From Cyanidioschyzon merolae (taxonomy: Eukaryota): a stretch of 64,000 nt of DNA. A program made the translations under genes and the position numbers. Under the pieces are notes generated by a model. The model searched no databases. It was given only the letters and a program-made list of their open reading frames with translations, and was not told the DNA's origin. Every line of letters starts with the position of its first letter. Position 1 is the stretch's first letter. Positions 3,801 through 47,940 of this stretch are shown here, one piece after another. The stretch is from assembly GCA_000091205.1 (NCBI GenBank), contig AP006501.2; one strand, written 5' to 3'.

Positions 3801-4385
3801 GCGAGTGCTTTTGAACGAGAAACGGAGGACGCAAGTGATCGCAGTAACGAGCCACCGCACGACTTCTTTGGAAGATTGTTGCTTAATACCGGATACACGT
3901 ACCACGGAACAGAAACGATGTACAACGGTTACACGGGCGAGCCGTTTGTTGTCCAAATATTCATCGGCGTGATTGCCTGGCAGCGACTTCGTCACCATAT
4001 TGCAGACAAGTTTCAGGTGCGAACTGAGGGTATTGTTCACCAGACACTCCGACAACCGCTGCGAGGCCGAAAGCGAGGTGGCGCTATTCGGCTCGGTGAG
4101 ATGGAGCGTGATGCGTTGCTTGCCAGTGGGGCTGCCTACACCCTCCAGGATCGGTTACAGAGCTGTTCAGACTTGCACACTGTATACGTTAGCGCTCTCG
4201 ACGGATCGCTACTCGCACCCATCGCAGCTCCGAACGAACGTCTGGGGGCTACCTCGCGGATCTCGGTCAAGTCCCGGACGAACACCCGCTCCCCAGTCGT
4301 TCGCGTGCACATGCCGTACGCTTTCAAGTATCTTGTTTACGAACTAGCAGCGATGAATATTAGGGTATCGCTTCCCGTTAAGTGA
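858..4385 (+). CDS. RPA2: DNA-directed RNA polymerase I second-largest subunit (A135/RPA2), intronless 1175 aa
   Basis: Motifs GDKFASRHGQKGV, SPRNIYQCQMGKQAMG, FIVNGVEKLLRMVIMPRANH and AVVAVISYTGYDMED align closely with yeast Rpa135 rather than the Pol II or Pol III paralogues. Confidence 0.92.
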   Translation: MTHAQQTTGTVLSESETRHLTETLLQILEPHLQSFNSAITQGLQQVLHDIEPLILEGTVQQAADHVSKERLEVWFEDLRLQKPRLPRARALQSTGNLRARGFADELELGLDPSAILPHQCRALQSSYTGSLSVVLCWRATRISHGCYRKDSTLCNTALWTNGSYAEDVYRSERHLGEVPILVGSKLCHLDGLSPNERVALHEEEYDYGGYFIVNGVEKLLRMVIMPRANHVMVIARDANVRRGEHFTRFSAMIRCRRADRVRVVTNHLHYLQTGLLRLRFSVKRQEYLLPLGLVLKALYDLADRELFLLLTMPSGCCGTNADENLRYIRERALMTVRELHVLTGGEGTQHAALSYLGARFRCLFPEYLSSDDSDERCGAFILRRYVLIHLDDPLQKLELLAYMSRKLLHYMTGCLAEDDPDSLANQELLLPGQLWLLFLQEKLQDALFALRDEISRQLTQRANQGSLLDPDFVRKCVSKPRSGIRVGERMLHLLSTGTASLRDGAELLQTSGYSIIADRINFQRFLSHFYSVHRGQYFLNLRTSESRKLKPETWGFICPVHTPDGAPCGILNHLTRMCRVVADQQQVLQEQKRIEWILETLPLEHPLAHNDALLMPPANARPVLVDGRIRGYVHGDVPLGKLLRQQKLEHFPQTEIVDVEIPRLFPSVMVFSTPSRLMRSVWNMPQAGIEWIGTMEQLFMPVDLCKSQSMSRAGNAAIHRELSATNIFSLLASFIPFSNMNQSPRNIYQCQMGKQAMGVPFHDWDRRFDTKSYRLLTPQQPLVQNRSEAQAGWSKVFGSSFNAVVAVISYTGYDMEDGMVINRASLDRGLAHGAIYGCEFVDLDQLNVAKDARFSRLPAVGERMTPGSVLYSIQGRRPHLYRNSETSYVDAVLLAENQRRVAIRTRTPRRPVIGDKFASRHGQKGVLSAIWPAEDMPYTSDGIVPDILFNPNGFPSRMTIGMIVESIAGKAAAVHGAVPIDASAFERETEDASDRSNEPPHDFFGRLLLNTGYTYHGTETMYNGYTGEPFVVQIFIGVIAWQRLRHHIADKFQVRTEGIVHQTLRQPLRGRKRGGAIRLGEMERDALLASGAAYTLQDRLQSCSDLHTVYVSALDGSLLAPIAAPNERLGATSRISVKSRTNTRSPVVRVHMPYAFKYLVYELAAMNIRVSLPVK

Positions 4386-20399: not shown

Positions 20400-22220
20400 A
20401 AACAGTGTCGCGTCCCACTTCATGAGTGTTTGTAACGCTTCCCTAGAAAAGATGCATTTTGTGAGGGACATGTACCACGACGTAGCGGATACCAAAACAG
20501 TCAAAGTTCCGGAAGAATTTTTCACGGTTACCTCCATCTGGCACCTGATGGCTGCCACAGGGGAAATGTCGGGGAGGAACGATCCAGTGCACGCCTTCTA
20601 CGAAAACTATCCCTTCTGCAGCATCAACGGTACTCGATGCAGGGCTGACTCGGGTATTTACACTTACGAGGCGATAGAGTATCTCACGAACCTGGGGAAC
20701 CAAACAATCGTAAACCACGAACGGTTCATCAAAGGCTGCATCTTTGCGCTCTACTCGGCCTGTCTCATAGGGTGGGTGACCATCATCGATAGCTCGACTA
20801 GAGATCGCCAGTATGAATAAGAGATCGAATTCTTCGACGAGGAGACATCACACAGGAGCACTACTGAAGGTTCTGTGATCCGTGCGGCTATTAAAGAGCA
20901 ACGTGGGGCCTCGAGGCTAGCGGATCAGCAGAAAACGTATCAGATATGAAAAAACATGAAAAGGAATTTTATCCCCTATCCTGCGCTATGTCGTATTTTT
21001 GAACAGAGAACTCGAGCGCAGGGCCAAAACGGAGCAGGGTGTGGAAGAAAATGAGGAGTCGATGGGGCGGCGGACTGCGCCTTTGGGGAAGCGCTTCAAA
21101 ATCGTACTGTTATGCAACATCAAGTCATATTTTGTGAAAATCGACCCCAGAGTCCTTTACGGCACACTGAAGGAGGTAAGTTCGGATTTCGATGTAAGCA
21201 ACTTGGAATTTACGGGCGAAAACCTGGAGACTCATTGGAAGCACATCTTCGATTTCAAACGTCTCAAAATGAGCAAGAAAAAGGTATTCAAGGAGATGAT
21301 CGAAAGCGATGGAGTATCCATACGCGTTGACTACAGGTGCTTGAAGGTGGATCGTCCTGTTTTGTCCTCGATATCGCGGGTGACGAAGCGTGACGAAATG
21401 AATGATGCGGACCCTACGACGTAGGAGGTGCAGGCGAAGGACCTCGTCGCCGGCGTGGACCGTGGGAACACGAATATCATGACCATTGCTGTTTCCATGC
21501 ATGGGAAAAATGCAAGGGCTCCCATCGCACAGGTGCAGCAAATGGAGAGCATAACCTCTGGACTTGTGACGACGCGGTTAACGACTTTTGCAATGAAACC
21601 CGCAGCGTATGGCACATTTACCTGAGCGGTTATACTCAGACCAGTGGATTTTGGAGTACATGTGCCAGCAACCCATTTTGTTATTGTTTCTTTTGCTCCC
21701 AGGCATTCAAAGAAAGCAATGGATCCCTTAGATTCGATAATTGTGGAGAAGAGACCTCAAACTGTCACTTTTAGCCTGCGAGCAATGATCTGACTCGTTC
21801 AATTCGGTCATTCTGCCATCAGCAGGTGGATGGATCACCTTTATCGTCGTCTTTGACTTGAACTTCGTGCATGAAAGGCAAAACTTAACAAACTCCCTCA
21901 CATAGACAGAATCGGCATCGATCCGTTCCACTCCATACACTCTCGCAGAAATTCTGCCGAAGAACCCAAATCGTGTGGAGTCCCCAGTCCTTTGATGCGA
22001 GGGATGATGAAGAGACACGAATGGACGAAGGAAAAAGCATGCTTCTTTGGGAGTTAATTGCGTGTTTGACGGGCCATTACCGACTCTGTACCGATGTAGA
22101 AGGCTTTTTCCAGAAGCGATATGTTTCGGCCTCTTACGATGAGACCTCTTTCGGAAGAAATGCGAAAGATGTTGATGAATACTTCACGAAGAAGGACAAC
22201 AAATGTTGTTCGTAATGAAG
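20400..22220 (+). mobile_element. Degenerate TnpB/Fanzor-like element, copy 1. N-terminal region, RuvC-I and zinc-finger segments are present; the RuvC-III tail appears absent
   Basis: Homologous at nt and aa level to 46066-47940. GKRFKIVLLCNIKSYFV matches GKRFKVVPLCNIKSYFV; LVAGVDRGNTNIMTIAVS matches VVGADPGDTNIIAIAVS (RuvC-I GxDxG). 21973-22215 (ACLTGHYRLC..KRYVSASYDE) matches copy 2's AGCWASKKWC..RRFATIPIDE. Confidence 0.65.
20999..21625 (+). pseudogene. Fanzor/TnpB-like nuclease ORF fragments of copy 1, interrupted by an in-frame TAG at ~21422
   Basis: ORFs 20999-21424 and 21428-21625 are in the same frame, separated by a stop; the RuvC-I motif lies in the second piece. Confidence 0.6.
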
Positions 22221-24552
22221 AGACAAGCTAGAATAATGACGACATCAGCCCATGCGCAGATTCCATCGAGTGGTAGTACGCAGGTCGCCAAACCTAGGGG
22301 ATCCCTCAGCAACCCATGCATCCTCGGGGCGCTATGTGGCACCTCCATTGTATATTTTTCTTGATTTGAGATGAAGTTGCTTTCCATAACTCTCTAGCGA
22401 TCAAGGAATAAGCAGCTGAGATAAGCGTTGAGCTGCCCTACATATCGGTCCATTCTTGCATGCAAAATCCGGTCGAGTGCGTCCTCTCGATTGCTATACG
22501 ATATTTTCTCGGCCTCGAATTCATAGACGAGACGTTTGCGTCCGTAACAAAGCAGTTCTTCGATAGATCCTTCTTCAACAAGTAATTCTCTACCTTAACC
22601 AGCTTTCAAATGCCCTGTGGCTCTTCCGATCTTTCGGACAAGGGTGTGCAAAAGCGCGCTCTGGCAGTGGAAGTGCCCGCGGCGAAGAAGATGCAAGAAG
22701 GTCACGGAGCATAGTAGAGACACATCTGCATTGTGGTTAGCGTCCGTCCCGCCGTCCTTCTAGTGTATCCAAGTCCCCGGGAGAATAAGATTACAAATAT
22801 AGCTACCGGATCTATGCTACTCTGCTAAGAAAAAGAAAAGGCGAGGAAGCAGAAGAACAAGCGACCAGACAGAGAAAGATACTGTCTGAAAGAAGAGGAG
22901 GAATAGGAAGGGATAACAGTAGGACACGGATTCAATCTTAGAATACCTTTAAGGTCTCTCTGCTAAAAATTGCCAAGAGGATATTTTTCCAATCGTTGAG
23001 ATTAAGGACGCCGTTAGGGACCGTATTGCACCTTGCTCGAGGACAATTCACCAGGCCTGCATAACATTGACACATCTCGTCAATGAATTGCTCGGCGTTC
23101 CAGGTGCGGAACTCCAAGGTACCCGCATTCCAATGGAATTTTTCGATCAAATATTCGTGCCAGAACTGAGACCCGGGACAGAAGCTGCGATACGACCTGA
23201 TATATCCAGAGCTCTAAATCATCATGAACCGGGCGGAATAGACACCAGGGGGCATACCAATATCGGGAATTTCAGTAGCTAGACCTCCATCTCGACGCTC
23301 TGCTTACGGTATTGATCTGAGAGGGATGATTTGTGCGCTTCTCTCACGGTATATGATGGTTCGGATGGCGCATGAGGACGATCCTTGGCTGGGATACCTG
23401 AGACGGTGCTGGTTTCGCCGCAAGTCTTGTTTGTATGGAGGTAAAACGTGCATTTGCGAAATTCGGGAATGGAAGAAATAGAAAATATCTGATAAGTTGC
23501 GTTGTTCGGGGGTTGCCTATGTCGCTTAACTTGCCGAAGAGCGCAAGGGCTCCACCCCTGCTCCTTCACAAAAAGCGCACAATGAGTGAAGGAATCGCTT
23601 CTGTTCGATTCCAATCGATGCTTTTGAGAGAACACTGACGCATCATGAGCTCGAGTGCACGCTGGAAAAGGTACAGAAACAAAGGGGGAAACAGAGCCGA
23701 ATGCAAGTGATGATACACAGTAAGTTGATCGAACTTCAAACGGCAAGGGAATCGAAGTAAAGAGGCTTGCTATGGATAATTTCACTAGGATCCATGAGCG
23801 TAAGCATGTCCTGCACCAGGACTTGAATGCTTCGAGAATCATCCGGAAATGTCTCGTACTTTCGGAACTTCCTGCCGCTGCTGGCGAGCGACGATTCAAG
23901 GGAATCATTTAGCGCTCAGTCTGGGCATTCTGATGAAACGTTGAGAAGCACGGATGAAAAACGTGAGTCGCCCGGAGAGATTGGAAGTGATTCCCGCCTG
24001 GAGCGAGTCACTGGTATGGCACAGTTCAGCAAACCACCAAGACCTAAACTCGATATCCATTCACGGAAAACGGTTTTCCATGAGACTAGCTAAACGATAT
24101 CTCGAGTTCGACTATTTGGTTTTAAATAGTATATTTTAACTTGTCCTGGCAAGCATGATCGTTTCTTCGAACGCCCTGCTGGGCATGAAGGTAGCCTCTA
24201 CATACAGCGGAGCTATGAGTCGGCGAGCTTCTCTCAGCCTCGTGAAAAGCCATTCAACACAAATACGTTTCAAATCAATGGCATGCCTCAGATTATCTTC
24301 ATCATACACAGGTCATCCACTACATACAGCATGAGTAGGCATTGATACTCCGCCAATCCTCCGTTTGGAGCGTCTGCCTGGAACGCCAAGCGTATCTTTC
24401 TCCGGGTGGCACAGTGTGCGGCCCAGCACGAGGACCAGATCCGACCGAAATGCACAGCGAACAGAATGTTTCGCAGCTGTTCCGCGATGTGTCGCAAGCT
24501 CTAGCAACGGGAGAGCTGTCGCAGATCGCACTTTTGACTAACTATTACTTCA

Positions 24553-27214: not shown

Positions 27215-30200
27215 CTAGAGGGCATTTCGCGAGGTGATAGATTTGTTGAAACGTATTGAGACTGTCGCATGAGCCGAATCCTTCTCGAGTGCAGGACAAC
27301 CAAATCCGCCGCGCACATAGAACTCCTGCTCGGATTGCTCGCTTGCTTGAGTTCCATCCTCGTCTGAGCCTTCATCATAGACGCTATCTATGTCGCACCT
27401 TTCAGAGGCCTCAATGTCGTCAGAGAAACTGTCTTCCGAATCTAAGAAATCTGTTTGGCTTGCGTCTGAAACGATGTCAGTACTGTCTCGGTCTTCACCG
27501 CCGAAGATGAGCTCCAATGCATTGTTCGTTCGGGTAGAGGATGTTGGGCCGTGCAGAAGCCCTTCGATATCATATGAATACAGTTTGCACCATGAAATAA
27601 TTTCGCCGCGGAGCTCCTCTGTTCGAAGCAATATTCGTGGAGAAAGTTTCATGAGCCGCTTATTCGCAGAGTTGTCAAAACTGCCGACTTCAGTGAACGA
27701 ATTAGACATCTTTGTTGCTTCACATAAAGTTTCACACAAGTTCAGCGCTTTCGCGAAAACGAAAGCGATCGCATCGCGGACGGTGACGAGCTCCATCCCC
27801 TGTGGCGGTTGAACACGATTGAGGCGGTCCAGTCGAGAACGTAGTACAGGCAAGACTGCGAGAAGCTCACTGAAGAAGACCACCCTACAGGTTTGACGGT
27901 CGGATCGAGCATTCTGTACCACCGCGAATACCCGCCTGCAAACCTCAATGCTAAAATGGGAGGATCGAAGTTGATTTCGCAGGTGACCGTGTGATTCTCG
28001 AATGAGCAATCGAGGGAGGCATAGCGCAATCCACGGGATTGACGCATTCGTCACACAGTTGAAACGAGGATGCGTACTCGGTGAGCTCCAGTTTTCAAGT
28101 ACATCTAGCAACTGCCCGACCTCATTCGGTAGGCAACTTTCCGGCAGACTGTATAACCATTTCCAAACGCGATAGCGCTCCGAAAGAAAAGGATGTCGAG
28201 AGTTGCCCCCACATGGCGAATTCAAATACTTCCGAACTATCTTAGCATTCGGTTCTGCATCGAACTTTCTGGTAAGCGCGTACTTCCGAAGCATTGTACA
28301 GCGCTCCCGCAATTGCAATGCAAAGGAGCACGATGGATGAGTTTGTTTCCAGTGCTTGATACGCAGCTTTGCACAGGTCTCGAACACGTTAGTGGCCAGG
28401 ATAGCCTCCAGGACTGTTCGAGCACCGTGTGTCAACGTCTCAAAATATTCAAGCACATCGAAAACCAGATTCTGTTCGATCTCTGTGCCGCCGGCGCCTA
28501 TGTAGTACCAGACAGTCAGGTGCCAAAGACGCAGGAGTGCCGGCGCCAACGCCATACACAGCGGACTCGTTTCACGCATGCATAGACATGTTTTCTCGCA
28601 CAGGTAGCTCAGCCAGGCGGGATTCCACAGATCTGCAAAGTGCTTCAATCCGCCAAGATCTTCAGTGATACCTGTTTCGAGTTCGTCTAGGAGGCAGAAA
28701 ATCTGACCTGTGCTATGCAAGAGATCAGACTTAATGATCCGCTGAACTAGCAGAGGGACATTTGTCTCTTCAGAAATGGATCTATATAGGGCCTCGATTC
28801 TTGTCATGGCATTTCTAGAATCAGGAGCGCGCTCAAGGAAAATGAAGATTCCAACAGCTATCGCCCTCTCCAGCTGGTCTAACGCATGAGCAAAGACCCA
28901 AGCAAGCTCAGGTGGAACGGGTCTGCGACAATGTTCCATTGCACCTAGCAGAATTTCCCGTCCGTGAATTGCACATTCCACAGCTTTTGAGACCTCAACA
29001 GTTTGCATAGAGCATATGTCGGTCGCAAGCTCAGTGAGGACACTGCTGAAATTCTCAGAGGGGCCTGTAGGCTCCTGCTCGTATGCCGCAAAAATAGATG
29101 CCTCGTAGAGTTTGAAAACGTTTCGAGGTACAGCCACCTGAAAGTCTCTCCATGAGCTATCTGTGCACGCAATATACGCACGAAGCGCTTGCCGCGTGAA
29201 ATGAGGCATGCTCTTCGAGAGTGATTTCGTCCGAAATATTCGACAGCCATGAAATATGTCGCTTGGGATGATTTTCTCTAGTATAGCAGCAAAACCATCC
29301 GGATTGATTCCATGTTCAGCAGAATCAGCAATGAGGCCGAGCAGGCTCGCCGCGAAAACTTCTTGAGCATCCATAGGAACGTTTTCCAGAATACTCCTGA
29401 GAACGACAAGTCGCTCCTGCTCGTCGCATCCGCGCGTAGTTGCTCGAACGTACAGTCGAGCCATGCTGCAAGCAGTATTCCACTGCCATAACGCTTGTTT
29501 CCGTATCAGCGAGCTTAAATTTGAAAGAATCCTCGAATCCTTTTCCCCCAGCGTTTGAAAAACGAGTGCGAACATATCAAGCATTGTCTCTGTCTGCAGC
29601 ATGTGCGAGAACGAAGAGACGCGATCCAGAATGAGTGGGGCGAATGGTAGCATCGTTTGCGTACGCGATCGACATAGCTCAAGTAAGGCAGAGGCGGCCT
29701 TGATTCTAAAAGCTCCCCCATGCTTTCGTGAGCTGCGGTACTTCGCAGATTGAAGAGGTACTGCACCACTGAAACACACTCCAAGAAGGTCTTTCACGAT
29801 ATCGGATCTTATGGACGCGTAAGAATCAAAAAATGTTGGCAAGCATACCTCAAGAACATCCCAGGATTTCTCGTGGGAACACAGAATTCGCAGAAAACGC
29901 AGCGCCCCAGTCGGAAATCTTTCAAATGCCGACATGTATGTTGCTAAGATACCGCGCAAGCACATTGCGTTCAAGCGTCGTGCAATCAGACTCTCTGAGA
30001 TAGCAATCTCAGCTATCCTGTCCATCCGAATTCGAGAAAGCATAAACAGCCAAAGACAGAAATCAAATGGCGAGATTTGGTCTGGAGACGGCCTATATCG
30101 AAACCTATTACGATGCCCATTCCGCGCATTCGAAGCCTTGCGTGGATGCCCCAGATCATCAAGGCACTTTTTCTCATCGCGCCCTTCGGTAAAACTATCA

Positions 30201-30820
30201 CTGAAGATCCTCTCCAGAACGTAACGGTCTATTCGTGAAACATCATCCAGCACTTCCACGACGAGAAAAAGAAGTTCAGGGGATGCGTCTTTCAGGTACT
30301 CGCGGATACGCTTGAAAAAAAGACCGCTCTTGGAACCTGACAGTTTGAGAAGTGCTCGAATAAGCGACGGAATTTCATTCTCTTCTACGTTGCCTAAGGA
30401 CTGCAGCGCAAGTTCGACTACGCCAGCGTGGAGTTTTCCTGACAGAGGCAACTCGCTGGCTGAAGCCAGTACTGGCACGAGCAAACTGCGGTCTAAAGCG
30501 ACGAGTTCCTTGTAGACTAGGAACGCGTTGTTGACGTCTTCCTGGCTACCAGATATAATATGCGCGGAGTAAGGCAGCAAGGTCCTAGGGTACAACGGCA
30601 GCAGCTCGAGAAAACGCTCCGTTACGGCTGGGGACGGTTGGCAGACGTGCTGCTTGATGATTTTGCAAGCTTCATCGAGAGCTTCTTCCTCTCCCAACTC
30701 CGAGGCAATCTCTAGCAGAAACAGTCCTGCTTCAGAACAAGTATCCCGTTGAGCTAGTAGTGAAATAGTTTCAGTAAGTTGCGCAGCGCCTATGGCCCGT
30801 AGCAGGTTTTTTGTGCTCAT
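27215..30820 (-). CDS. Large alpha-helical (HEAT/ARM-like) protein with an acidic Ser/Asp/Glu C-terminal tail. A FANCD2/FANCI-like identity is possible but unverified
   Basis: Uninterrupted 1201-aa ORF with helical-repeat character and a C-terminal DSEDSFSDDIE..DEGSDEDGTQASEQSEQE tail. Confidence 0.6.
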   Translation of the reverse strand: MSTKNLLRAIGAAQLTETISLLAQRDTCSEAGLFLLEIASELGEEEALDEACKIIKQHVCQPSPAVTERFLELLPLYPRTLLPYSAHIISGSQEDVNNAFLVYKELVALDRSLLVPVLASASELPLSGKLHAGVVELALQSLGNVEENEIPSLIRALLKLSGSKSGLFFKRIREYLKDASPELLFLVVEVLDDVSRIDRYVLERIFSDSFTEGRDEKKCLDDLGHPRKASNARNGHRNRFRYRPSPDQISPFDFCLWLFMLSRIRMDRIAEIAISESLIARRLNAMCLRGILATYMSAFERFPTGALRFLRILCSHEKSWDVLEVCLPTFFDSYASIRSDIVKDLLGVCFSGAVPLQSAKYRSSRKHGGAFRIKAASALLELCRSRTQTMLPFAPLILDRVSSFSHMLQTETMLDMFALVFQTLGEKDSRILSNLSSLIRKQALWQWNTACSMARLYVRATTRGCDEQERLVVLRSILENVPMDAQEVFAASLLGLIADSAEHGINPDGFAAILEKIIPSDIFHGCRIFRTKSLSKSMPHFTRQALRAYIACTDSSWRDFQVAVPRNVFKLYEASIFAAYEQEPTGPSENFSSVLTELATDICSMQTVEVSKAVECAIHGREILLGAMEHCRRPVPPELAWVFAHALDQLERAIAVGIFIFLERAPDSRNAMTRIEALYRSISEETNVPLLVQRIIKSDLLHSTGQIFCLLDELETGITEDLGGLKHFADLWNPAWLSYLCEKTCLCMRETSPLCMALAPALLRLWHLTVWYYIGAGGTEIEQNLVFDVLEYFETLTHGARTVLEAILATNVFETCAKLRIKHWKQTHPSCSFALQLRERCTMLRKYALTRKFDAEPNAKIVRKYLNSPCGGNSRHPFLSERYRVWKWLYSLPESCLPNEVGQLLDVLENWSSPSTHPRFNCVTNASIPWIALCLPRLLIRESHGHLRNQLRSSHFSIEVCRRVFAVVQNARSDRQTCRVVFFSELLAVLPVLRSRLDRLNRVQPPQGMELVTVRDAIAFVFAKALNLCETLCEATKMSNSFTEVGSFDNSANKRLMKLSPRILLRTEELRGEIISWCKLYSYDIEGLLHGPTSSTRTNNALELIFGGEDRDSTDIVSDASQTDFLDSEDSFSDDIEASERCDIDSVYDEGSDEDGTQASEQSEQEFYVRGGFGCPALEKDSAHATVSIRFNKSITSRNAL

Positions 30821-35054: not shown

Positions 35055-38000
35055 TCAAGTATATGCATCGAACTTCATAGATCGTGGTTCTAGAGAAATC
35101 TTACCACAAAATGAACCGCTTCGTTTCCTCTTAGTTTTCATTTTGCGAAACGCTTTTCCTTGGTATGCGGAGAGTTCCGCCCAGGTTTTCTGGGCATGCT
35201 GATCTCTCGGGGTGGGATCAATGAGGGTAACATCCGAAGAAAAGAAACGTTCCTCTTGAATCCTCCGGAAAGGTGTGTTAGCCTGGGGGACTCTCTTCGC
35301 TCTGTCGGATTTTGGGGCAGCCTGTGGGTGAGGATTCAGCTTGGAGCTAGAGGCACCAGCCACGTCGCACTGACTTTTGTCACCAGAGCCTTCTACAATG
35401 ATGCTTCCTGCTGAGTCATCTCTGGGGTCGGACAAAATGGTTTGCGTGGATGACTGACTTTTGCGCCCCATCGCAGACACGGGTTTCGTTACCCGAGGCG
35501 CCATATCAGTAGATTGCGCTAGCATTCCTGGATGGGAATCAATTTGTGATGCACTGAAAGCGCTCCCTATTTGTTCGTTTGAACTGCAAGCGCGCAGTCC
35601 ATCAAATGCGATCCCATTTCCACCGTCTTCCATCGCTGCGCGCGGCTTGTATCTAGGATCCGCATCTTTGCTAGAGTGAAGTCTCTCTGGTTTCCTGAAA
35701 CCTGCGCAAACGTTTGACTTTTGAGCTTTCGTATGGCAATTCTCAGTTAAGGAATGCCAGCTTGAACAAGGAGATCCGTGCTCTCTACGCGTTCGTTTGT
35801 CTAAAGGTTTCCCCGTATCTCTTTTCTGATGATTTTGGATCTGATTTGCACAGACTGGCAAGTCTCCTCCGTCTTGCGCATGAAACCGATATTGCTCTTC
35901 TAAAGAATCCCATTTCATCGTTTTGTTCTGGCCGACCATGAGGCTAGAGTTATGCGGTTTCGACGTATTCGAGGGTCCACACTGGACGTCGTCACTTATA
36001 CATGATTCCGTAACAGCAGCCGGAGCTGAATCCGTGCCTATTAGTACTTTTCGCTGGGAAGTACGCTCAGTGCCTTCGGCAGGGTTCTGTGATTGAGCAA
36101 CGTTCCCTTTCCGAGAGCTCGCATCCCTAGAAGCTCTGCCATTCGCGATTTCACTTCCAGCATGGTTTGTCCGAACCCCGCGATTCCGAGGGGCCTTGCC
36201 CTCACCTTCAGGGATGTGTTGCGTTGCATGTCGTCCTAATGGATTCCTTCCATGGAGCTCTCCATGAAAATATTGCGACCCGCTGGACGCAGCATTCCCT
36301 GTTCTCTGTTCCTGCACTTTCCCGGAAGCAAGATCTTCAGCATGGTAGCTGTTCATTTGCATTTTCATCTCACGCGATTCTAATGATGGACTTATTCCAT
36401 CAGTATTACCATTCGCGAGAGATCCATTGATTTCATGATAATGCCTAGATGGCTCGCATGAGCTGCCTCCAGTGGAATGCACTGATATGTTATCATTTCT
36501 GTCACAATGAGATGCTATCAGCTGATGGTCTGAGGTGTTGGGAAGGGAATCCTGGAATCGTTCCTCTATCCTGCCAGGAGCCGTGCGACTTGCTGATATC
36601 TTTCCAGGCGGAACTGGTAAATTCGGCTCGCTGCTGGTTCCAAAGTCACTCATATTCATACGCGCTGAGCATCTACTGCAGCCGCTGCTCGATGACGACT
36701 CAGAAGTCGACTCCGAAGTGGAGGACGCAACACCTGCCGTCCTCGGTGGCACCTTTCGCGCCTCCGTAGCCTCTAGTGAGCTCGATGAGCTCGATGAGCT
36801 CGACGATGTTGCCGTCGACGCTAGCGCACGCTTCGCTGAGGCCCGATGTGGCGGTTGGACGCTCCCAGCGCGCCTTGTGACTCGCTCGCCGTCGCTCGAT
36901 GACGACTCAGAAGTCGACTCCGAAGTGGAGGACGCAACACCTGCCGTCCTCGGTGGCACCTTTCGCGCCTCCGTAGCCTCTAGTGAGCTCGATGAGCTCG
37001 ATGAGCTCGACGATGTTGCCGTCGACGCTAGCGCACGCTTCGCTGAGGCCCGATGTGGCGGTTGGACGCTCCCAGCGCGCCTTGTGACTCGCTCGCCGTC
37101 GCTCGATGACGACTCAGAAGTCGATTCCGAAGTGGAGGACGCAACACCTGCCGTCCTCGGTGGCACCTTCCGCGCTTCCGTAGCCTCTAGTGAGCTCGAT
37201 GAGCTCGATGAGCTCGACGATGTTGCCGTCGACGCTAGCGCACGCTTCGCTGAGGCCCGATGTGGCGGTTGGACGCTCCCAGCGCGTCTTGTGACTCGCT
37301 CGCCGTCGCTCGACGACGACTCAGAAGTCGACTCCGAAGTGGAGGACGCAACACCTGCCGTCCTCGGTGGCACCTTTCGCGCCTCCGTAGCCTCTAGTGA
37401 GCTCGATGAGCTCGATGAGCTCGACGATGTTGCCGTCGACGCTAGCGCACGCTTCGCTGAGGCCCGATGTGGCGGTTGGACGCTCCCAGCGCGCCTTGTG
37501 ACTCGCTCGCCGTCGCTCGATGACGACTCAGAAGTCGACTCCGAAGTGGAGGACGCAACACCTGCCGTCCTCGGTGGCACCTTTCGCGCTTCCGTAGCCT
37601 CTAGTGAGCTCGATGAGCTCGATGAGCTCGACGATGTTGCCGTCGACGCTAGCGCACGCTTCGCTGAGGCCCGATGTGGCGGTTGGACGCTCCCAGCGCG
37701 CCTTGTGACTCGCTCGCCGTCGCTCGATGACGACTCAGAAGTCGACTCCGAAGTGGAGGACGCAACACCTGCCGTCCTCGGTGGCACCTTTCGCGCCTCC
37801 GTAGCCTCTAGTGAGCTCGATGAGCTCGATGAGCTCGACGATGTTGCCGTCGACGCTAGCGCACGCTTCGCTGAGGCCCGATGTGGCGGTTGGACGCTCC
37901 CAGCGCGCCTTGTGACTCGCTCGCCGTCGCTCGATGACGACTCAGAAGTCGATTCCGAAGTGGAGGACGCAACACCTGCCGTCCTCGGTGGCACCTTTCG

Positions 38001-39527
38001 CGCCTCCGTAGCCTCTAGTGAGCTCGATGAGCTCGATGAGCTCGACGATGTTGCCGTCGACGCTAGCGCACGCATCGCTGAGGCCCGATGTGGCGGTTGG
38101 ACGCTCCCAGCGCGCCTTGTGACTCGCTCGCCGTCGCTCGATGACGACTCAGAAGTCGATTCCGAAGTGGAGGACGCAACACCTGCCGTCCTCGGCGGCA
38201 CCTTCCGCGCTTCCGCAGCCTCTAGTGAGCTCGATGAGCTCGATGAGCTCGACGATGTTGCCGTCGACGCTAGCGCACGCTTCGCTGAGGCCCGATGTGG
38301 CGGTTGGACGCTCCCAGCGCGCCTTGTGACTCGCTCGCCGTCGCTCGACGACGACTCAGAGGTCGACTCCGAAGTGGAGGACGCAACACCTGCCGTCCTC
38401 GGTGGCACCTTCCGCGCTTCCGTAGCCTCTAGTGAGCTCGATGAGCTCGACGATGTTGCCGTCGACGCTAGCGCACGCTTCGCTGAGGCCCGATGTGGCG
38501 GTTGGACGCTCCCAGCGCGCCTTGTGACTCGCTCGCTGTCGCTCGATGACGACTCAGAAGTCGACTCCGAAGTGGAGGACGCAACACCTGCCGTCCTCGG
38601 TGGCACCTTCCGCGCTTCCGCAGCCTCTAGTGAGCTCGATGAGCTCGATGAGCTCGACGATGTTGCCGTCGACGCTAGCGCACGCTTCGCTGAGGCCCGA
38701 TGTGGCGGTTGGACGCTCCCAGCGCGCCTTGTGACTCGCTCGCCGTCGCTCGACGACGACTCAGAGGTCGACTCCACCAGGACCACAGATTCAGGAAGCA
38801 ATTTCAGAGAAGATGATGAGAATACATCTGGTTGGGGTCGTTCATTATCTAAGACGCTGCCTTTTTTCCGGGGAAACGCCGACGCGTAGAATCGCGACTC
38901 GGCTGAGCCGACAGCACCGGAGTCTGCTCTCGCGCGCCTCTCACGCTCTTGTGGAGCTGACTCGTTTTTTGAGATCGCCACTGCTTCCGAGACAGCGCCC
39001 GGCCCACCAGAATCTGGAATAGACTGAGCAGGGGCCCTTACTGAAACCTTTTCACTTCGCCTTCGACCGGTTAGGGCCGCACCTGCGGCTGACAAACTCA
39101 ATACAGGAGACACGCTCCATTTCGCATCTGTTTCAGAGGCCCATTTGTATGTCCGAGCGTCGATCCCACTTTCTTCCAGTAATCTTGCGTCTAACTCTTC
39201 TATTGCAAAGCTCAAGCGCTTTGATCTCTGTATCGAAAGTCCAGCAGTATGCGAACTGCTCGAGTCGCTTGAGTTGTCTGCAATTTCAGAGCTTGATTCG
39301 GCTCTATGAATAGTCGCATCACATTCGCAGCGTGCACGCTTCTTTGCAAGCTTTTCCGCTGATTCATGCGCCAAAGATTCAGCTGTCCGTTTTAAACCTA
39401 CACTGTGAAGAAACTGAAACAGCGCACCGAGAAGGCCACTGTTTCGCAAACGACCTCCATGCAGTCGGGAATCGCCAGCTTCCTCTTCTGATAGGTGCTT
39501 GTCCCCTTGAGAACATTTTGATTCCAT
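35055..39527 (-). CDS. LisH-domain protein with a long Ser-rich region containing ~10 tandem 69-aa repeats
   Basis: N-terminal LisH-like motif LLGALFQFLHSVGLKRTAESLAHES. Repeats read ...ESTSESSSSDGERVTRRAGSVQPPHRASAKRALASTATSSSSSSSSSSLEATEARKVPPRTAGVASSTS. Unique flanks of >500 aa support this strand as coding. Confidence 0.75.
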   Translation of the reverse strand: MESKCSQGDKHLSEEEAGDSRLHGGRLRNSGLLGALFQFLHSVGLKRTAESLAHESAEKLAKKRARCECDATIHRAESSSEIADNSSDSSSSHTAGLSIQRSKRLSFAIEELDARLLEESGIDARTYKWASETDAKWSVSPVLSLSAAGAALTGRRRSEKVSVRAPAQSIPDSGGPGAVSEAVAISKNESAPQERERRARADSGAVGSAESRFYASAFPRKKGSVLDNERPQPDVFSSSSLKLLPESVVLVESTSESSSSDGERVTRRAGSVQPPHRASAKRALASTATSSSSSSSSSSLEAAEARKVPPRTAGVASSTSESTSESSSSDSERVTRRAGSVQPPHRASAKRALASTATSSSSSSSLEATEARKVPPRTAGVASSTSESTSESSSSDGERVTRRAGSVQPPHRASAKRALASTATSSSSSSSSSSLEAAEARKVPPRTAGVASSTSESTSESSSSDGERVTRRAGSVQPPHRASAMRALASTATSSSSSSSSSSLEATEARKVPPRTAGVASSTSESTSESSSSDGERVTRRAGSVQPPHRASAKRALASTATSSSSSSSSSSLEATEARKVPPRTAGVASSTSESTSESSSSDGERVTRRAGSVQPPHRASAKRALASTATSSSSSSSSSSLEATEARKVPPRTAGVASSTSESTSESSSSDGERVTRRAGSVQPPHRASAKRALASTATSSSSSSSSSSLEATEARKVPPRTAGVASSTSESTSESSSSDGERVTRRAGSVQPPHRASAKRALASTATSSSSSSSSSSLEATEARKVPPRTAGVASSTSESTSESSSSDGERVTRRAGSVQPPHRASAKRALASTATSSSSSSSSSSLEATEARKVPPRTAGVASSTSESTSESSSSDGERVTRRAGSVQPPHRASAKRALASTATSSSSSSSSSSLEATEARKVPPRTAGVASSTSESTSESSSSSGCSRCSARMNMSDFGTSSEPNLPVPPGKISASRTAPGRIEERFQDSLPNTSDHQLIASHCDRNDNISVHSTGGSSCEPSRHYHEINGSLANGNTDGISPSLESREMKMQMNSYHAEDLASGKVQEQRTGNAASSGSQYFHGELHGRNPLGRHATQHIPEGEGKAPRNRGVRTNHAGSEIANGRASRDASSRKGNVAQSQNPAEGTERTSQRKVLIGTDSAPAAVTESCISDDVQCGPSNTSKPHNSSLMVGQNKTMKWDSLEEQYRFHAQDGGDLPVCANQIQNHQKRDTGKPLDKRTRREHGSPCSSWHSLTENCHTKAQKSNVCAGFRKPERLHSSKDADPRYKPRAAMEDGGNGIAFDGLRACSSNEQIGSAFSASQIDSHPGMLAQSTDMAPRVTKPVSAMGRKSQSSTQTILSDPRDDSAGSIIVEGSGDKSQCDVAGASSSKLNPHPQAAPKSDRAKRVPQANTPFRRIQEERFFSSDVTLIDPTPRDQHAQKTWAELSAYQGKAFRKMKTKRKRSGSFCGKISLEPRSMKFDAYT
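36687..38775. repeat. Tandem minisatellite, 207-bp unit x ~10 (one 198-bp variant), inside the LisH protein gene
   Basis: Unit starts at 36687, 36894, 37101, 37308, 37515 and so on, with >95% identity. 207 = 3 x 69, so both strands stay open. Confidence 0.95.
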
Positions 39528-40393
39528 GACTTTCGGAACTATGATATCTCAAAAGGACGAGTATGTGCACGAAGTGCCTTCTGAACAGGTTTATGTACCT
39601 CCTAGGGTGACGTCGACTTGGTATGCACCGTCTACCAACGGCGATGTCGACGCCGACGTCTCCCGGCGACGCCGTCGCATGCTACCGGCGATCATCGGCG
39701 TGGGGCATATTGTTGCAAGACGTGAAGATCGGATGTTCAGCTAGAGCGCCTCTCCTGGAACATGCTCTAGAGGCAAAAGTAGCATTGCACTGCATCCGCC
39801 ACATACGACGTCGTCTATCGGGACGTGATTGGGTGTGGAGGAATACGCATGCGCTTTTCGACTGTAGTCTAAGGTTCGGCGTCTTGTACGAAGCATCCTG
39901 TCTTTCTGCTGACTGCGGGCAGTGAAAGGTAGTCAACGAAATAGAGCTGCAGATCAGGCAAGCACTGGTCAGTTGTTCGTTCGTTCAAGCCTCTATACCC
40001 GTGCCAGACGAAACAGGAACACACTGATCCTCGTTCTGTTACCGTACGTCGATATTTTCCAAACCTTTGTCTAGAGTTACAGTGTAGATATGTGAAGTGG
40101 ATCACCACTGACTTACAGATTCGTACGTATGTAAAGGATTCTCCGTCGCAATTTCGGTCTGGCTCCTTCGACTCCCTTCGGCCGGTACTTTTCCAGTCTA
40201 GGGATTCAAGATGATTCGCAACGCAATCGAACGAAGGCTGCTAGAGTAACAGATATCAGCATCCAACCCATGCGTACAGGCCTGTAAGCTTTTCTTTTGC
40301 AAACGTGTAGCGTGCAGGAATCACGCACCCTTCGTATGTTCGATCTGTCCGTTCCGAGGCGATTCTTGGGCGCGACAAGTTGCGTCGCTGTAT

Positions 40394-41056
40394 TCACGAC
40401 GACGAGAACTCGGCTTTAAGCCCTGACGACCTGCTCGCATACTCACTCCGCAGGTGTACTGAACGGATAAGGTCGAATAATCGAGTATGGTCGAAAGACA
40501 TAATCTCCTCTTTTTTCGCCATCGAAGAAAAAGCATTCGACAGCATCAGCACGATACCTCTCAGGGAGTATGCTCCCAGATGCATGCGTCTCTTCTGTTT
40601 GCTTGGAAAAGTGTCTTGGGATAGGACTTCAGTCATCGCAGCAACAGCTGCCAGAGAAGGGTGCGTCACCGCTTGGGGCAAAGCGATTGCAGACGCAGCG
40701 GTGCAGTCGACTTGCTCCCCAGTCGGGATTTTCCTTCCGGTACCTGTTTTATCGAATGGAATGACGCATTCCAAACAAGCCCCAACTGGAAGGTGCGGAG
40801 TGCGTACGCGTATGCAACGGACAGTGTTCTCGACTAGGGGATCGCCCAGGAGAAGCCCCTGATCGTAAGGCACAGCAACGATGACGAAAACGGATGCAAA
40901 CATCGCGGGGAGCGTATTTCTACAGATTAGCGGCATCTTCGGAGCTGCGAAGCTAGCCTCCATGCGCCAGAGAGCGGCCTTTGTAAGAGACGATGTTGCA
41001 GGCACGTGAGAACGCCTCAGGGCAGCCAAGCGTTGGCGCCGCTGCGCGGGCTTCAC
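40394..41056 (-). CDS. Hypothetical protein; it overlaps a plus-strand ORF (40380-40862), so either could be the real gene
   Basis: 220-aa ORF with an internal hydrophobic segment; no recognisable motif. Confidence 0.25.
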   Translation of the reverse strand: MKPAQRRQRLAALRRSHVPATSSLTKAALWRMEASFAAPKMPLICRNTLPAMFASVFVIVAVPYDQGLLLGDPLVENTVRCIRVRTPHLPVGACLECVIPFDKTGTGRKIPTGEQVDCTAASAIALPQAVTHPSLAAVAAMTEVLSQDTFPSKQKRRMHLGAYSLRGIVLMLSNAFSSMAKKEEIMSFDHTRLFDLIRSVHLRSEYASRSSGLKAEFSSS

Positions 41057-42382
41057 CGAGGCTCTCCACTACGGAGGTGCAAGCGGCGAGCGAAGCGCAG
41101 CTCGCAACTCGCGCCTGTCCGTGGTATGCGTGGACATTTACCGGAAGGCGCGAGCTCGGGACATTAGCGTTGCCATCAAATCCTTCGGCGCTCACACCCG
41201 AGCTGGATGGACCGGTGAAACTGGCGCACCTCAGACCGGAAATAAGAGAGAAAAAAGGGGTAGGCGCGGAAAAATCCCACAAATGCTTGTATTGTTAACA
41301 GTTGGATGATTTTCAAACTTTGTACTGCATGCTCGAGTCAGGTTTGCGGACCCGTTCCGTTTGACTCTAAGATGCGCGCGGACTCGGCGGCGGACGCGAA
41401 ATGGTATACATCTTGAGAGCTTGAACAGAAACAATTAGATTCTTAACTTCCTGAGCGTCAAAATTTCCATTCGGGGCGGAATGATACCTCCCGCAGGAAC
41501 GGCTGCTCGAACCTTCCGCTTTTTCGATTGCGGGTTCCCGGTCCCGCACTAGCGTTTCCCGTACTATCTTTTGACTAAGGAAACGCTGCTTGTGGTTCTG
41601 GTGCATGCTCCGCGATGGCTTACTGGGGTTCGCTTTTGGCCCACTGGTTGATGAATTCCCGAACCGAAATGTATTCTATCTAACACATGCTATACGTTAG
41701 AATTGCTGTAGCTGTCCCTAAATGCCTTCTTGCCATGCAATGATGATCAAATTCCTGCGGTAGTCTGGTAAAATCTGCACATGGCCAGTTCGTAAGAACA
41801 TGGTCTTTTGGTCTTCTCACTTGATCAAGACAGCAAAGTCACGTAGGCTTGTGAAAAGCAATCATACGTAAGCGCCTTGATCCATGAATAGGTGACGAAA
41901 ATCTCTCGTTTACAATGAAATGTCGAAAAATCCGGAAGAGATGATGATGTTGTGACGCACAGCTCTGCTATAATTTTGAGAAGCCTCATCTTATGATCAG
42001 CCGATTAACGGTTACACGCTGTTTTGCCGTCCCCTGGACTACGTGCGACTGCCTTGCGCTTATTCGGATTCTTGTTAGTTCAGTGTCATTTATTCTTGGC
42101 GATGGAGGCTAGCGTGGGGTCCAAAGTACCTCCGAAAGAACACTCTGGCTTGACGTGCCTATTACGCGCTCTTCTGAAGCTTGAGTACACCAGCGCTAAC
42201 TTTTCCCTTGTATGCAATCCAGCACGATCGTTGCTGCACAGGAAAGGATCGAATTCGACGACGCGCAGTTCTCATTAGCAATTCGAAGGACTGTGCGGTT
42301 GGGATTTGTCCTGCGATCCGCATATCTATTTCAGGGGCATCTCGCCTGATGCAACACCAAAAGAGCAGCACCTGCTGCTGTG

Positions 42383-46065: not shown

Positions 46066-47940
46066 TTGCTCTCCGTTCTTCACGTGCAGTATTCTCAAAT
46101 CACGCGTTCTTCATGTTTTAGTCTTTCTTCTTCAAGGTACTTCGGGGGTTCTGCAATGTGCCCCGATGGATTGGTGAGGAACAACATGAGATGTCGACCT
46201 TTGACGACTTGTTCACAAGGTCATGCCGAAAGTCAGCTGAACCTTCCACGCCAAGTAATAAATTCTGTACGAAAGACATGTCCTTCTCTATTTGCAAATT
46301 ACGAAGAAACCGTATTTTACAACAGCACAATGGTTCCCAGAGAATATGCTCCCAGCGGCTTTCGTCTCTTGTGCTTTAATGGAAACGGGTCTTGGACCCG
46401 GGCCTCTCTCGAAAAGGCATTTGGGCCATCGTCACTGCCATCACCAACGATCGGCAGCATGAACAGGCGAAAGAATTTTTCGACAAGAAGACATCACGCA
46501 GGGGAAAGAATGAAGCTTATGTGATCGGTTCGGCTATTCAAGAGTACCGTGCGGTCTTGGGGCTAGCGAATCTCGCAGAAAAGTCATCAGATATGAAAAA
46601 AAGGTGATGAAATGCGCTGTCCCCTCATCCTGCGCTATTTCTTGTTCTTTGACCGAGAACTCGAAGACAAGGCCGGAAAGGAGCTGGGTGTAGGAAAAAA
46701 AGAAGAGTCGGAGAGACAGAAGGCTGCCCTAATGGGGAAGCGCTTCAAGGTCGTTCCGTTATGCAACATCAAGTCATACTTTGTGACAATCAACTCCAGA
46801 GTCTATTTCGGCATCATGAGGGATATCTATGAGGAGTTCGGCGTAAACAGGGAGGAGTTCAGCGGCGAAAATCGGGACACGTACCGGAAGAGTATCTTCT
46901 ATTTAAAAAGTGTCAAAACGAGCAAGCAAAAGAAATTCACATGGATGGTCGAAAGCGATGAAGTATCCATGTGTGTACACTTTCGGCGCTTGAAGGCGAA
47001 TCGTCCTGTTCCGTCCTCGGCTTCGCCCCTGAGGAAGCATGCAGAAAAGAAAGAGGCGGATCCTGCTACGCAGAAAGTGCAGGATAACGACTTTGTCGTT
47101 GGCGCGGACCCAGGGGACACGAATATAATAGCCATCGCAGTATCGAAGCGTATGGTAGATGTGACTGACGGCAACTTACGTCATAAAGACATGCGTCTCT
47201 TAAAGTTCTCGAGAACGAGATATCACCGAGAATCGGGAATAATGAGTGCGAGGGAAAAAATTTAGGAAGAGAATTCAGGAGTGAAAGAGCGCCTGGAAGC
47301 TATGAGCGAGGTGACTAGCCGAAAAGCGGACTTTCGAGCTTTTCTGAAATTCATGGAAGTTCGCGTTGCTCTTTGGGAGGCGCTGTGGAAAGAGTATACA
47401 AAGCCACGATGGGCTCGTTTGTGAATGAGCTTGTACTGTGTGAAGCAGCGGGCATTCGCCAACTTTTTCAATGAGTTGAGTGCCTTGAAAGAGGACGAGA
47501 GTCAAAGGCACGTAGTAGCATTCGGAGCAGGGTGCTGGGCATCGAAAAAATGGTGTACACCAGCTCCAACGACGAGAACGTACAAGGAGCGTGCACGGCG
47601 TTTTGCCACAATACCAATAGATGAGTTCCAATCGTCCAGTATTCACCATGAGTTGGGATGTACACTTCAGACGGTCGAGATGGATTAGTGTCAGCGGCGC
47701 GGTGACGATATAAAACAGTACGGAGCGCTGACGGAAGAGCAAATGGAAAGGACGGCGAAAGTTCGAGGATTGCTTACGTTAGTGAGTACAACCACCGGGA
47801 GGAAACGTGTGAAGTTTGTGAACAGGGAATTTAACGCCGCCATCAATATAAGGAGATGTGCGGTGATGGAAATAAGACCTCCAGAGTTGACAAGAGTGAA
47901 TTTTTGGGAGAACCTCTCAAATTATACGAGAAGAAATTGA
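46066..47940 (+). mobile_element. TnpB/Fanzor-like RuvC nuclease gene, copy 2. Full-length architecture but broken by in-frame stops and one frameshift
   Basis: Same-frame ORFs 46066-46524, 46612-47265, 47425-47688 and 47743-47940. RuvC-I VVGADPGDTNIIAIAV, Cys/His cluster GCWASKKWC..HHELGC, and a C-terminal VNREFNAAINIRR (RuvC-III signature with D to E). Confidence 0.7.
46612..47265 (+). pseudogene. Largest intact segment of Fanzor/TnpB-like copy 2 (N-terminal/WED-like region plus RuvC-I)
   Basis: 217-aa ORF ending at a stop. The sequence continues in another frame (EENSGVKERLEAMSEVTSRKADFRAFLKFMEVRVALWEALWKEYTKPRWARL), which indicates a frameshift. Confidence 0.6.

Follow-up and report, generated by a model that had tools for sequence, protein, structure and literature searches.

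This analysis concerns a 64,000-nucleotide stretch of contig AP006501.2 (GenBank assembly GCA_000091205.1) of Cyanidioschyzon merolae strain 10D, referred to below as the window, and in particular a minus-strand gene within it that encodes a protein of 1490 amino acids (aa) and carries in its middle a tandem array of near-identical 207-bp units. C. merolae, a red alga used as a model organism, has a genome of exceptional simplicity with only three ribosomal DNA units, and nearly all of its genes are intronless (PMC1955436), which accounts for the long uninterrupted open reading frames (ORFs) of the window. The ORF of the array gene is delimited by an in-frame stop upstream of its ATG. From the N- to the C-terminus, its product is composed of a short conserved island, the array, a long non-repetitive linker and an SRP40_C tail (Table 1). 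The gene is very probably the C. merolae ortholog of Nopp140 (NOLC1)/Srp40, with the array as its central domain; it is thus a known protein design in an unusually young and regular form, and a new kind of element is not implied.

Table 1. Features of the array gene and of its neighbourhood in the window (positions are those of the window; aa, amino acids of the 1490-aa protein)
Feature	Position	Strand	Basis or remark
Probable Nopp140/Srp40-family coding sequence, complete, intronless, 1490 aa plus stop	35055..39527	-	ORF, domains, syntenic ortholog
Conserved N-terminal island (aa 28-65), LisH-like helix-turn-helix followed by KKRxR	39333..39446	-	putative dimerisation motif
Coding minisatellite	36687..38775	-	encodes aa 254-947; 10 units plus 21-bp partial
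Unit 2, 198-bp variant	38364..38561	-	one of three consecutive TCGAGCTCA (Ser-Ser-Ser) missing; Gly-to-Ser change
Non-repetitive, fast-evolving linker (aa 953-1418, 466 aa)	35274..36671	-	weak/partial similarity to ortholog
SRP40_C domain (aa 1419-1486), C-terminal tail	35070..35273	-	Pfam PF05022
Antisense open frame, 787 codons	36526..38889	+	by-product of the repeat
RNA polymerase I second-largest subunit (RPA2)	858-4385		BAM82746, exact match
RSH1			BAM82752, exact match to window ORF
Farnesyltransferase beta			BAM82753, exact match to window ORF
CYME_CMS123C	27215-30820	-	BAM82754, exact match
Valosin-containing protein (VCP)			BAM82755, exact match to window ORF
Alcohol dehydrogenase class III (ADH)			BAM82756, exact match to window ORF
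ClpB			BAM82758, exact match to window ORF
Mitochondrial intermediate peptidase			BAM82761, exact match to window ORF

Tandem Repeats Finder, run on the whole window, described the array with a period of 207, 10.1 copies, 97% matches, no indels and a score of 3954, and returned it as the sole tandem repeat with a score of at least 80, the floor adopted for this statement. Ten units lie head to tail at 36708-38768 (nine of 207 bp and one of 198 bp), accompanied by a 21-bp partial eleventh, and their start-to-start spacings are seven times 207, then 198, then 207. Nine of the units are 69 codons long and unit 2 has 66, none is frameshifted, and the array, which makes up 47% of the protein, is a coding minisatellite, that is, a series of in-frame near-identical units inside a coding sequence. 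The initial annotation, made from the letters of the window, had described about ten near-identical units that encode a 69-aa Ser-rich repeat on the minus strand, and both points were confirmed. The 198-bp variant that it had found to lack one DEL codon triplet is unit 2, in which the lost 9-bp copy of TCGAGCTCA reads 'ELD' in the plus frame and whose junction is unique within the window.

Pairwise differences among the nine 207-nt units average 3.5 nt (1.69%), with 6 of the 36 pairs identical, and all unit differences are confined to 10 variable sites and one 9-bp indel. Units 5, 7, 9 and 10 (u5, u7, u9 and u10) are mutually identical, and four marker sites are common to u1 and u3. The most divergent units are the three at the 5' end of the gene (u1-u3) and the most uniform are the interior and 3' ones, with the exception of unit 8, which is off the consensus at four sites. 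Such a pattern is what unequal exchange would be expected to leave in an array that it homogenises, the edge units escaping, and the identity among units is so high that recent amplification or homogenisation is indicated.

At the protein level, the 69-aa unit reads TSESSSSD-GERVTRRAGSVQPPHRASAKRALA-STATSSSSSSSSSSLEATE-ARKVPPRTAGVA-SSTSES, and the peptides encoded by the minus-strand gene include VTRRAGSVQPPHR and KVPPR. Two Ser-rich stretches alternate in each unit with two basic stretches of Arg, Lys, Pro and Ala, and about 21 Ser-rich stretches alternate with basic ones over the middle of the protein. The unit contains 29 Ser/Thr, 9 Lys/Arg and 6 Asp/Glu residues, giving a net charge of +3, and the array region as a whole is 32% Ser, 10% Thr and 10% Arg. 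By consensus count, the entire protein has 72 CK2 minimal sites ([ST]xx[DE]), of which 50 fall in the array, at 5 per unit.

The assignment to the Nopp140/Srp40 family is made because the SRP40_C domain scores above its cutoff, the N-terminal island is conserved, and Ser runs alternate with basic stretches between the two. The SRP40_C match has an E-value of 2.3e-9 and 38.4 bits against a curated cutoff of 28.6, and covers the model from end to end (1-76 of 76). An exhaustive phmmer (HMMER) search with the last 110 aa, carried out against 1.84 billion representative proteins at E <= 0.001, matched four proteins: the array protein itself, an ortholog from a related cyanidialean alga (62% identity) and two fragments (P0117 and P0118) that end in the canonical Nopp140/Srp40 tail, '...PFRRV...DNSF...WG.KA...QGK.FRHEKTKKKRGSY.GG.I...NS.KFD'. 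Canonical tails have the form 'KTKKKRGSYRGG.I..NS.KFD', also given as 'KKKRGSYRGG...KFD'. The array gene was the sole C. merolae match in this search. Searches for homologs of the non-repeat parts, 546 aa at the C-terminal end and 253 aa at the N-terminal end, returned same-species sequences only, and no Pfam domain was found in the 466-aa linker.

The Nopp140 design consists of a LisH motif, 10-16 alternating basic and acidic phospho-Ser motifs phosphorylated by CK2, and a conserved C-terminus (bioRxiv 10.1101/513978), and the Ser-rich centre is described as a CK2 target with about 80 CK2 serines (PMC8336889). The large low-complexity centre of the family, with about ten or more Ser-rich acidic stretches alternating with basic ones, has its counterpart in the algal protein, in which the acidity of the Ser-rich stretches would need phosphorylation. 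By analogy with animal Nopp140, its Ser runs are probably phosphorylated by CK2.

The N-terminal island was examined in the same light. Residues 31-58 (LLGALFQFLHSVGLKRTAESLAHES) resemble a LisH motif by eye, and 28 of the 47 columns aligned with the ortholog are invariant while the surrounding N-terminus has diverged; judging from this alignment, the segment is a conserved functional element. Two Pfam LisH models match at aa 37-56 below threshold: LisH_WDR26 with E-values of 0.019 for the N-terminal 253 aa and 0.0049 for a 40-aa fragment (15-17 bits, cutoff 27), and LisH_TPL with 0.16 and 0.01 for the same two queries (12-16 bits, cutoff 30.7). A single-sequence AlphaFold2 model of the N-terminus, which is of low confidence (mean predicted local distance difference test score, pLDDT, of 57.6), places a short helix at residues 33-42 and, after a turn of three residues, a long one at 46-79, with a pLDDT of ~64-71 over the island. 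LisH identity of the island, sub-threshold in Pfam, is plausible.

Several observations weigh against the family assignment. LisH is one of the three family hallmarks, known as a dimerisation motif of the metazoan members. The Pfam LisH models gave no match in the N-terminus of the ortholog and sub-threshold matches only in the array protein; no LisH protein was matched by phmmer against the PDB or by a two-species profile against the PDB, and a Foldseek search with the low-confidence AlphaFold2 model produced no LisH match. The acidic stretches are poor in Asp and Glu (6 per 69 aa), so that their acidity would rest almost wholly on phosphorylation, and the basic stretches are rich in Arg, not Lys. 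Neither the 466-aa linker nor the length of 1490 aa has a counterpart in human (~700 aa) or fly Nopp140. The initial annotation had spoken of a Ser-rich protein with a LisH domain: the Ser-rich part stands, the LisH match is sub-threshold, and the family identity, for which SRP40_C is the marker, had been missed. Its suggestion of a scaffold or phospho-regulated protein agrees with the reading given here of a Ser-rich, probably phospho-regulated scaffold.

The ortholog from the related alga was first reached by the tail search, and look-up of the exact protein then led to its locus on two contigs: L002, a JGI contig of 200 kb, and JBBELT010002060.1 of NCBI assembly GCA_041825655.1. A related-locus search with the ortholog in JGI metagenome contigs gave no matches. 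The gene order SufE-BolA, ClpB, Nopp140-like gene, ADH, VCP, CMS123C-like gene and farnesyltransferase is kept between the two species, which are well separated, a neighbouring AAA-ATPase being 66% identical. The full ORF of the ortholog encodes 948 aa (L002 8672-11518), with SRP40_C at 42.3 bits, and its alignment with the array protein is restricted to the N-terminal island and the C-terminal region. Its centre likewise alternates Ser runs with basic stretches, and contains three decayed 'KRVAA-Ser(n)' repeats, spaced 46 and 56 aa, of which the 86-nt DNA cores are 73-88% identical. No long-period 207-bp array was found in the ortholog on L002, which is a metagenome assembly and could itself be collapsed. 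It follows that the near-identical 207-bp array, as it exists today, is confined to the C. merolae lineage, and the recent expansion or homogenisation proposed in the initial annotation from unit identity is supported by the array-free ortholog.

Homology of the unit itself across the two species was also considered and rejected as not demonstrable: the 69-aa unit aligned to the ortholog centre with a z-score of 2.5 over composition-preserving shuffles, but the reversed unit scored higher. We also noticed that three other, independent contigs of the related species (L003, L004 and L005) break off at their 5' ends where the ortholog codes for Ser runs, at ~265-270 bp upstream of the truncated gene call. 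This suggests that short-read assembly also fails at the centre of the related-species gene, which L002 (9300-10000) may represent incompletely.

Public metagenome and short-read predictions of the array protein, at least 15 in number, are shortened to one or two units of chimeric make-up and are labelled 'hypothetical protein'. Exactly one unit is present in 15 JGI, ENA and Logan proteins (846 or 872 aa, with 99-100% identity in the non-repeat parts), and two members of the cluster have two units (915 and 941 aa). Over 22.6 kb, one ENA contig (k141) matches the window at 99.75-99.8% identity, and the collapse of the array is the sole structural difference between them. The single unit of contig L001 combines the head markers of window unit 1 with a consensus tail. 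In contig L006, the first unit equals window unit 1 except at one site, and the second joins the unit-2 head marker (site 25) to a tail like that of units 5, 7, 9 and 10. In these independent environmental contigs the markers follow one another as u1 type, u2 head marker and u10-type tail. This shows natural populations to contain several unit types side by side, arranged in a way that agrees with the 5' edge of the 10D array. The junction of the 198-bp unit, sought with a pattern validated in the window, had no match in JGI metagenome contigs; this unit may be specific to 10D, or else was lost in the collapse. Between-strain differences in the non-repeat parts amount to 5 nonsynonymous and 2 synonymous changes, few in number but indicative of a fast-evolving protein; the ratio of nonsynonymous to synonymous rates (dN/dS) was set aside on account of such small counts.

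The existence of the array is confirmed and the count of ten is probable. It could be argued that Sanger sequencing and finishing with bacterial artificial chromosomes (BACs) produced a wrong count, too high or too low, and that the true allele has another number of units, possibly as few as two or three, given that every other assembly of the species shows one or two and that the 198-bp junction was not recovered. The exact 1490-aa sequence is moreover absent from a 15-billion-protein collection that contains the proteins of its neighbours, and an earlier version of the genome had more than 20 kb of misassembled sequence, since corrected (PMC1955436). We nevertheless hold a miscount to be rather unlikely. 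The other assemblies are unable to count units because their k-mers (e.g., k141) are shorter than the 207-bp period, and the collapse can be read from their units, which are chimeras of the first, second and last units of the window, a de Bruijn signature. The window units, for their part, carry structured shared variants (the four sites of u1 and u3, the identity of u5, u7, u9 and u10) and not random errors, and finishing of the reference relied on BAC-based PCR and on subcloning (PMC1955436). A different objection accepts the array and questions the function: the protein would have only the SRP40_C tail in common with Nopp140 and would play another role, e.g., that of a nuclear or RNA-binding scaffold, rich in Ser and Arg and peculiar to the lineage, with no part in the chaperoning of small nucleolar ribonucleoproteins (snoRNPs). 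The sub-threshold LisH, a length twice the usual with a unique linker, repeats that are rich in Ser, Arg, Ala and Thr with few Asp/Glu, and central regions that are not alignable between the two species above composition controls would all suit such a protein. However, the order of the parts (N-terminal helix-turn-helix, alternating Ser/basic repeats and SRP40_C tail) is that of Nopp140 (bioRxiv 10.1101/513978), the recovery of the array gene alone from C. merolae by the tail search is consistent with a single family member, and a rapid turnover of the central repeats has been reported in Drosophila too (bioRxiv 10.1101/513978). We therefore consider a separate role very unlikely, and keep the identification of the gene as a Nopp140/Srp40 ortholog.

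The last alternative concerns the strand. The initial annotation regarded the repeat as open on both strands, and a plus-strand frame is indeed uninterrupted over 787 codons, with an acidic ORF of 784 aa from a GTG start (36535-38889) whose translation includes DSEVEDATPAVLGGTF...; were it a real overlapping antisense gene, the repeat would be coding on both strands. It scores better for codon usage than the minus frame (0.267 vs 0.033 per codon), which speaks against the minus strand, and some of its Pfam E-values are nominally significant (EipB_like 8e-14, SAMD1_SHD, DUF937 and others). These families are unrelated, however, and the whole-protein scores are sums of repeated low-complexity matches among which no stretch passes individually. 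Codon usage was rejected as a criterion of strand because the score reflects a GAN/GCN-rich composition. The variable sites of the unit, 7 synonymous and 3 nonsynonymous in the minus frame, were likewise dropped as a criterion, since the two frames share their third codon positions and silent variation is silent on both strands. Against an antisense gene stands that the plus frame, in a eukaryotic nuclear gene, contains no ATG codon at all, ends 161 bp and 114 bp beyond the limits of the array, and corresponds in the ortholog to antisense ORFs of only 61 and 108 aa. When the 69-aa unit was recoded in 5000 synonymous versions with codons drawn by the usage of this genome, the plus antisense frame was open in 54% of them and some other frame in 71%, and once a single unit is open, ten copies yield a long ORF automatically. 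An overlapping antisense gene is thus hardly credible, the plus frame having neither the start codon, the independent extent nor the conservation of one, and on sequence grounds the plus-strand ORF is not a gene but a non-coding artefact of composition. The initial annotation was right that the ORF is present and over-read its meaning; its choice of the minus strand as the coding one is supported by ORF extent, domains and conservation.

If the gene is a Nopp140/Srp40 ortholog, its mode of action can be sketched from what holds for the family. The N-terminal motif would allow the protein to dimerise. CK2 would first act on the Ser-x-x-Glu/Asp sites with which each Ser run ends on its C-terminal side, and phosphorylation would then spread hierarchically, so that a disordered chain of net basic charge becomes a series of strongly acidic blocks alternating with basic ones. 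The resulting multivalent phosphoprotein would concentrate box C/D and H/ACA snoRNPs and contact RNA polymerase I in the nucleolus. Unequal recombination or replication slippage would make the array grow, shrink and become uniform, and would account for its origin or homogenisation in the present form within the C. merolae lineage. The interior and 3' units would thereby stay near-identical and those of the 5' edge (u1-u3) would drift apart. The more specific proposal that this lineage recently amplified or homogenised the 69-aa unit to ten, about doubling the Ser-cluster valency relative to the sister species, and that the count may vary among populations, is tentative and on balance doubtful. 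Copy-number polymorphism among C. merolae strains, which the initial annotation took to be likely, is by itself plausible by analogy with Drosophila Nopp140, for which alleles with two and three 96-bp units provide a precedent.

Among known systems, Nopp140/NOLC1 of rat and human has in common with the algal protein the SRP40_C tail, a short conserved helical motif at the same N-terminal position, and a large disordered centre with ~10 repeats of Ser-rich (CK2 target) and basic stretches. The differences are that the algal units are ~98% identical in DNA and lie in one exon, whereas the human ones are degenerate and spread over exons 3-10; that the algal acidic blocks are nearly pure Ser/Thr and the basic blocks have more Arg than Lys; and that the algal protein is 1490 aa long with an extra 466-aa linker, against ~700 aa, and has a LisH below the Pfam threshold. 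Yeast Srp40, of ~400 aa, is characterised by long Ser-rich acidic clusters, with very long runs of Ser, Asp and Glu, and contains the C-terminal domain that names the Pfam family; it is not known to have a regular long-period DNA repeat. The ortholog of the related alga has the same neighbours, N-terminal island and SRP40_C tail as the array gene, but is 948 aa long, with three decayed repeats and without the 207-bp array.

The closest parallel at the DNA level is exon 2 of Drosophila melanogaster Nopp140, a single-exon centre in which tandem DNA repeats code for basic/acidic units (bioRxiv 10.1101/513978). The fly repeats are also poorly conserved between related species, and a 96-bp length polymorphism (P'), with alleles one unit apart, has been documented (bioRxiv 10.1101/513978). 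The fly, however, has 2-3 copies of a 96-bp (31-aa) unit, as against 10 of a 207-bp (69-aa) unit in the alga. Treacle (TCOF1) resembles the array protein in its N-terminal LisH, its central acidic-Ser/basic units and its nucleolar role with RNA polymerase I (bioRxiv 10.1101/513978), but is restricted to vertebrates and has another C-terminus; the red-algal protein is grouped with Nopp140 and not with treacle because of its SRP40_C tail.

The identities of the neighbouring genes were obtained by exact matching of window ORFs to the NCBI proteins of C. merolae 10D (Table 1), and the chromosome that carries them has 1,282,939 bp. With ADH as BAM82756 and ClpB as BAM82758, the intervening accession BAM82757 presumably belongs to the array gene, the sole coding sequence between the two, and by this accession order BAM82757 is probably the array protein. 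No NCBI members were present in the clusters of matches to the array protein, and our literature search for Cyanidioschyzon together with Nopp140, NOLC1 or SRP40 found no paper linking them; a search of the literature for the locus tags of neighbouring genes was likewise negative. Scans of the window for Rfam families and tRNAs gave no matches. The gap between ClpB and the Nopp140-like gene (39528-42382) is 2.9 kb, compared with ~0.95 kb in the related species (L002 7721-8672); it contains only short ORFs, none of the ATG ORFs tested there equals an NCBI protein, and no other feature was recognised in it. The RPA2 gene lies 31 kb from the Nopp140-like gene, and although Nopp140 has been reported to interact with RNA polymerase I (bioRxiv 10.1101/513978), their proximity is most likely coincidental. 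CYME_CMS123C, a conserved hypothetical protein of 1201 aa, has no Pfam domain beyond a faint FANCI_S1 match (E 0.014) and has a syntenic counterpart in the related species (a 1222-aa ORF, L002 15545-19213).

A dispersed repeat was also observed in the window, with copies on the plus strand at 20803-21495 and 46449-47144 (697 bp aligned, 73.6% identity) and a further pair at 23512-23784 and 47515-47787; beyond the aligned part the translated similarity is patchy. Both copies are located in ORF-poor stretches of lower GC content (0.476-0.487) with positive AT and GC skew, and hold paralogous broken ORFs of 141 and 217 aa ('GKRFK[IV]V.LCNIKSYFV...') with no Pfam match, the longer of which ends in '...VGADPGDTNIIAIAVSK'. 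Both are probably degenerate copies of some mobile element; transposons are reported to be extremely scarce in this genome (PMC1955436).

The present assignment gives a Nopp140/Srp40 name to a gene that is listed in public metagenome annotations as 'hypothetical protein' only. It also carries two practical warnings: every short-read assembly of C. merolae shrinks the protein from 1490 to 872 or 941 aa, and the long antisense ORF could mislead gene finders, since its codon-usage score exceeds that of the true frame. For the family, the comparison of the two algae indicates that the centre can be quickly rebuilt by tandem amplification with only two terminal motifs held constant, which supports the view that the centre acts by composition and valency and not by sequence. 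C. merolae has a minimal nucleolus and is genetically tractable. If the amplification is indeed recent and the copy number variable, the array would offer a natural and engineerable allelic series in which repeat valency could be related to the properties of the nucleolar condensate.

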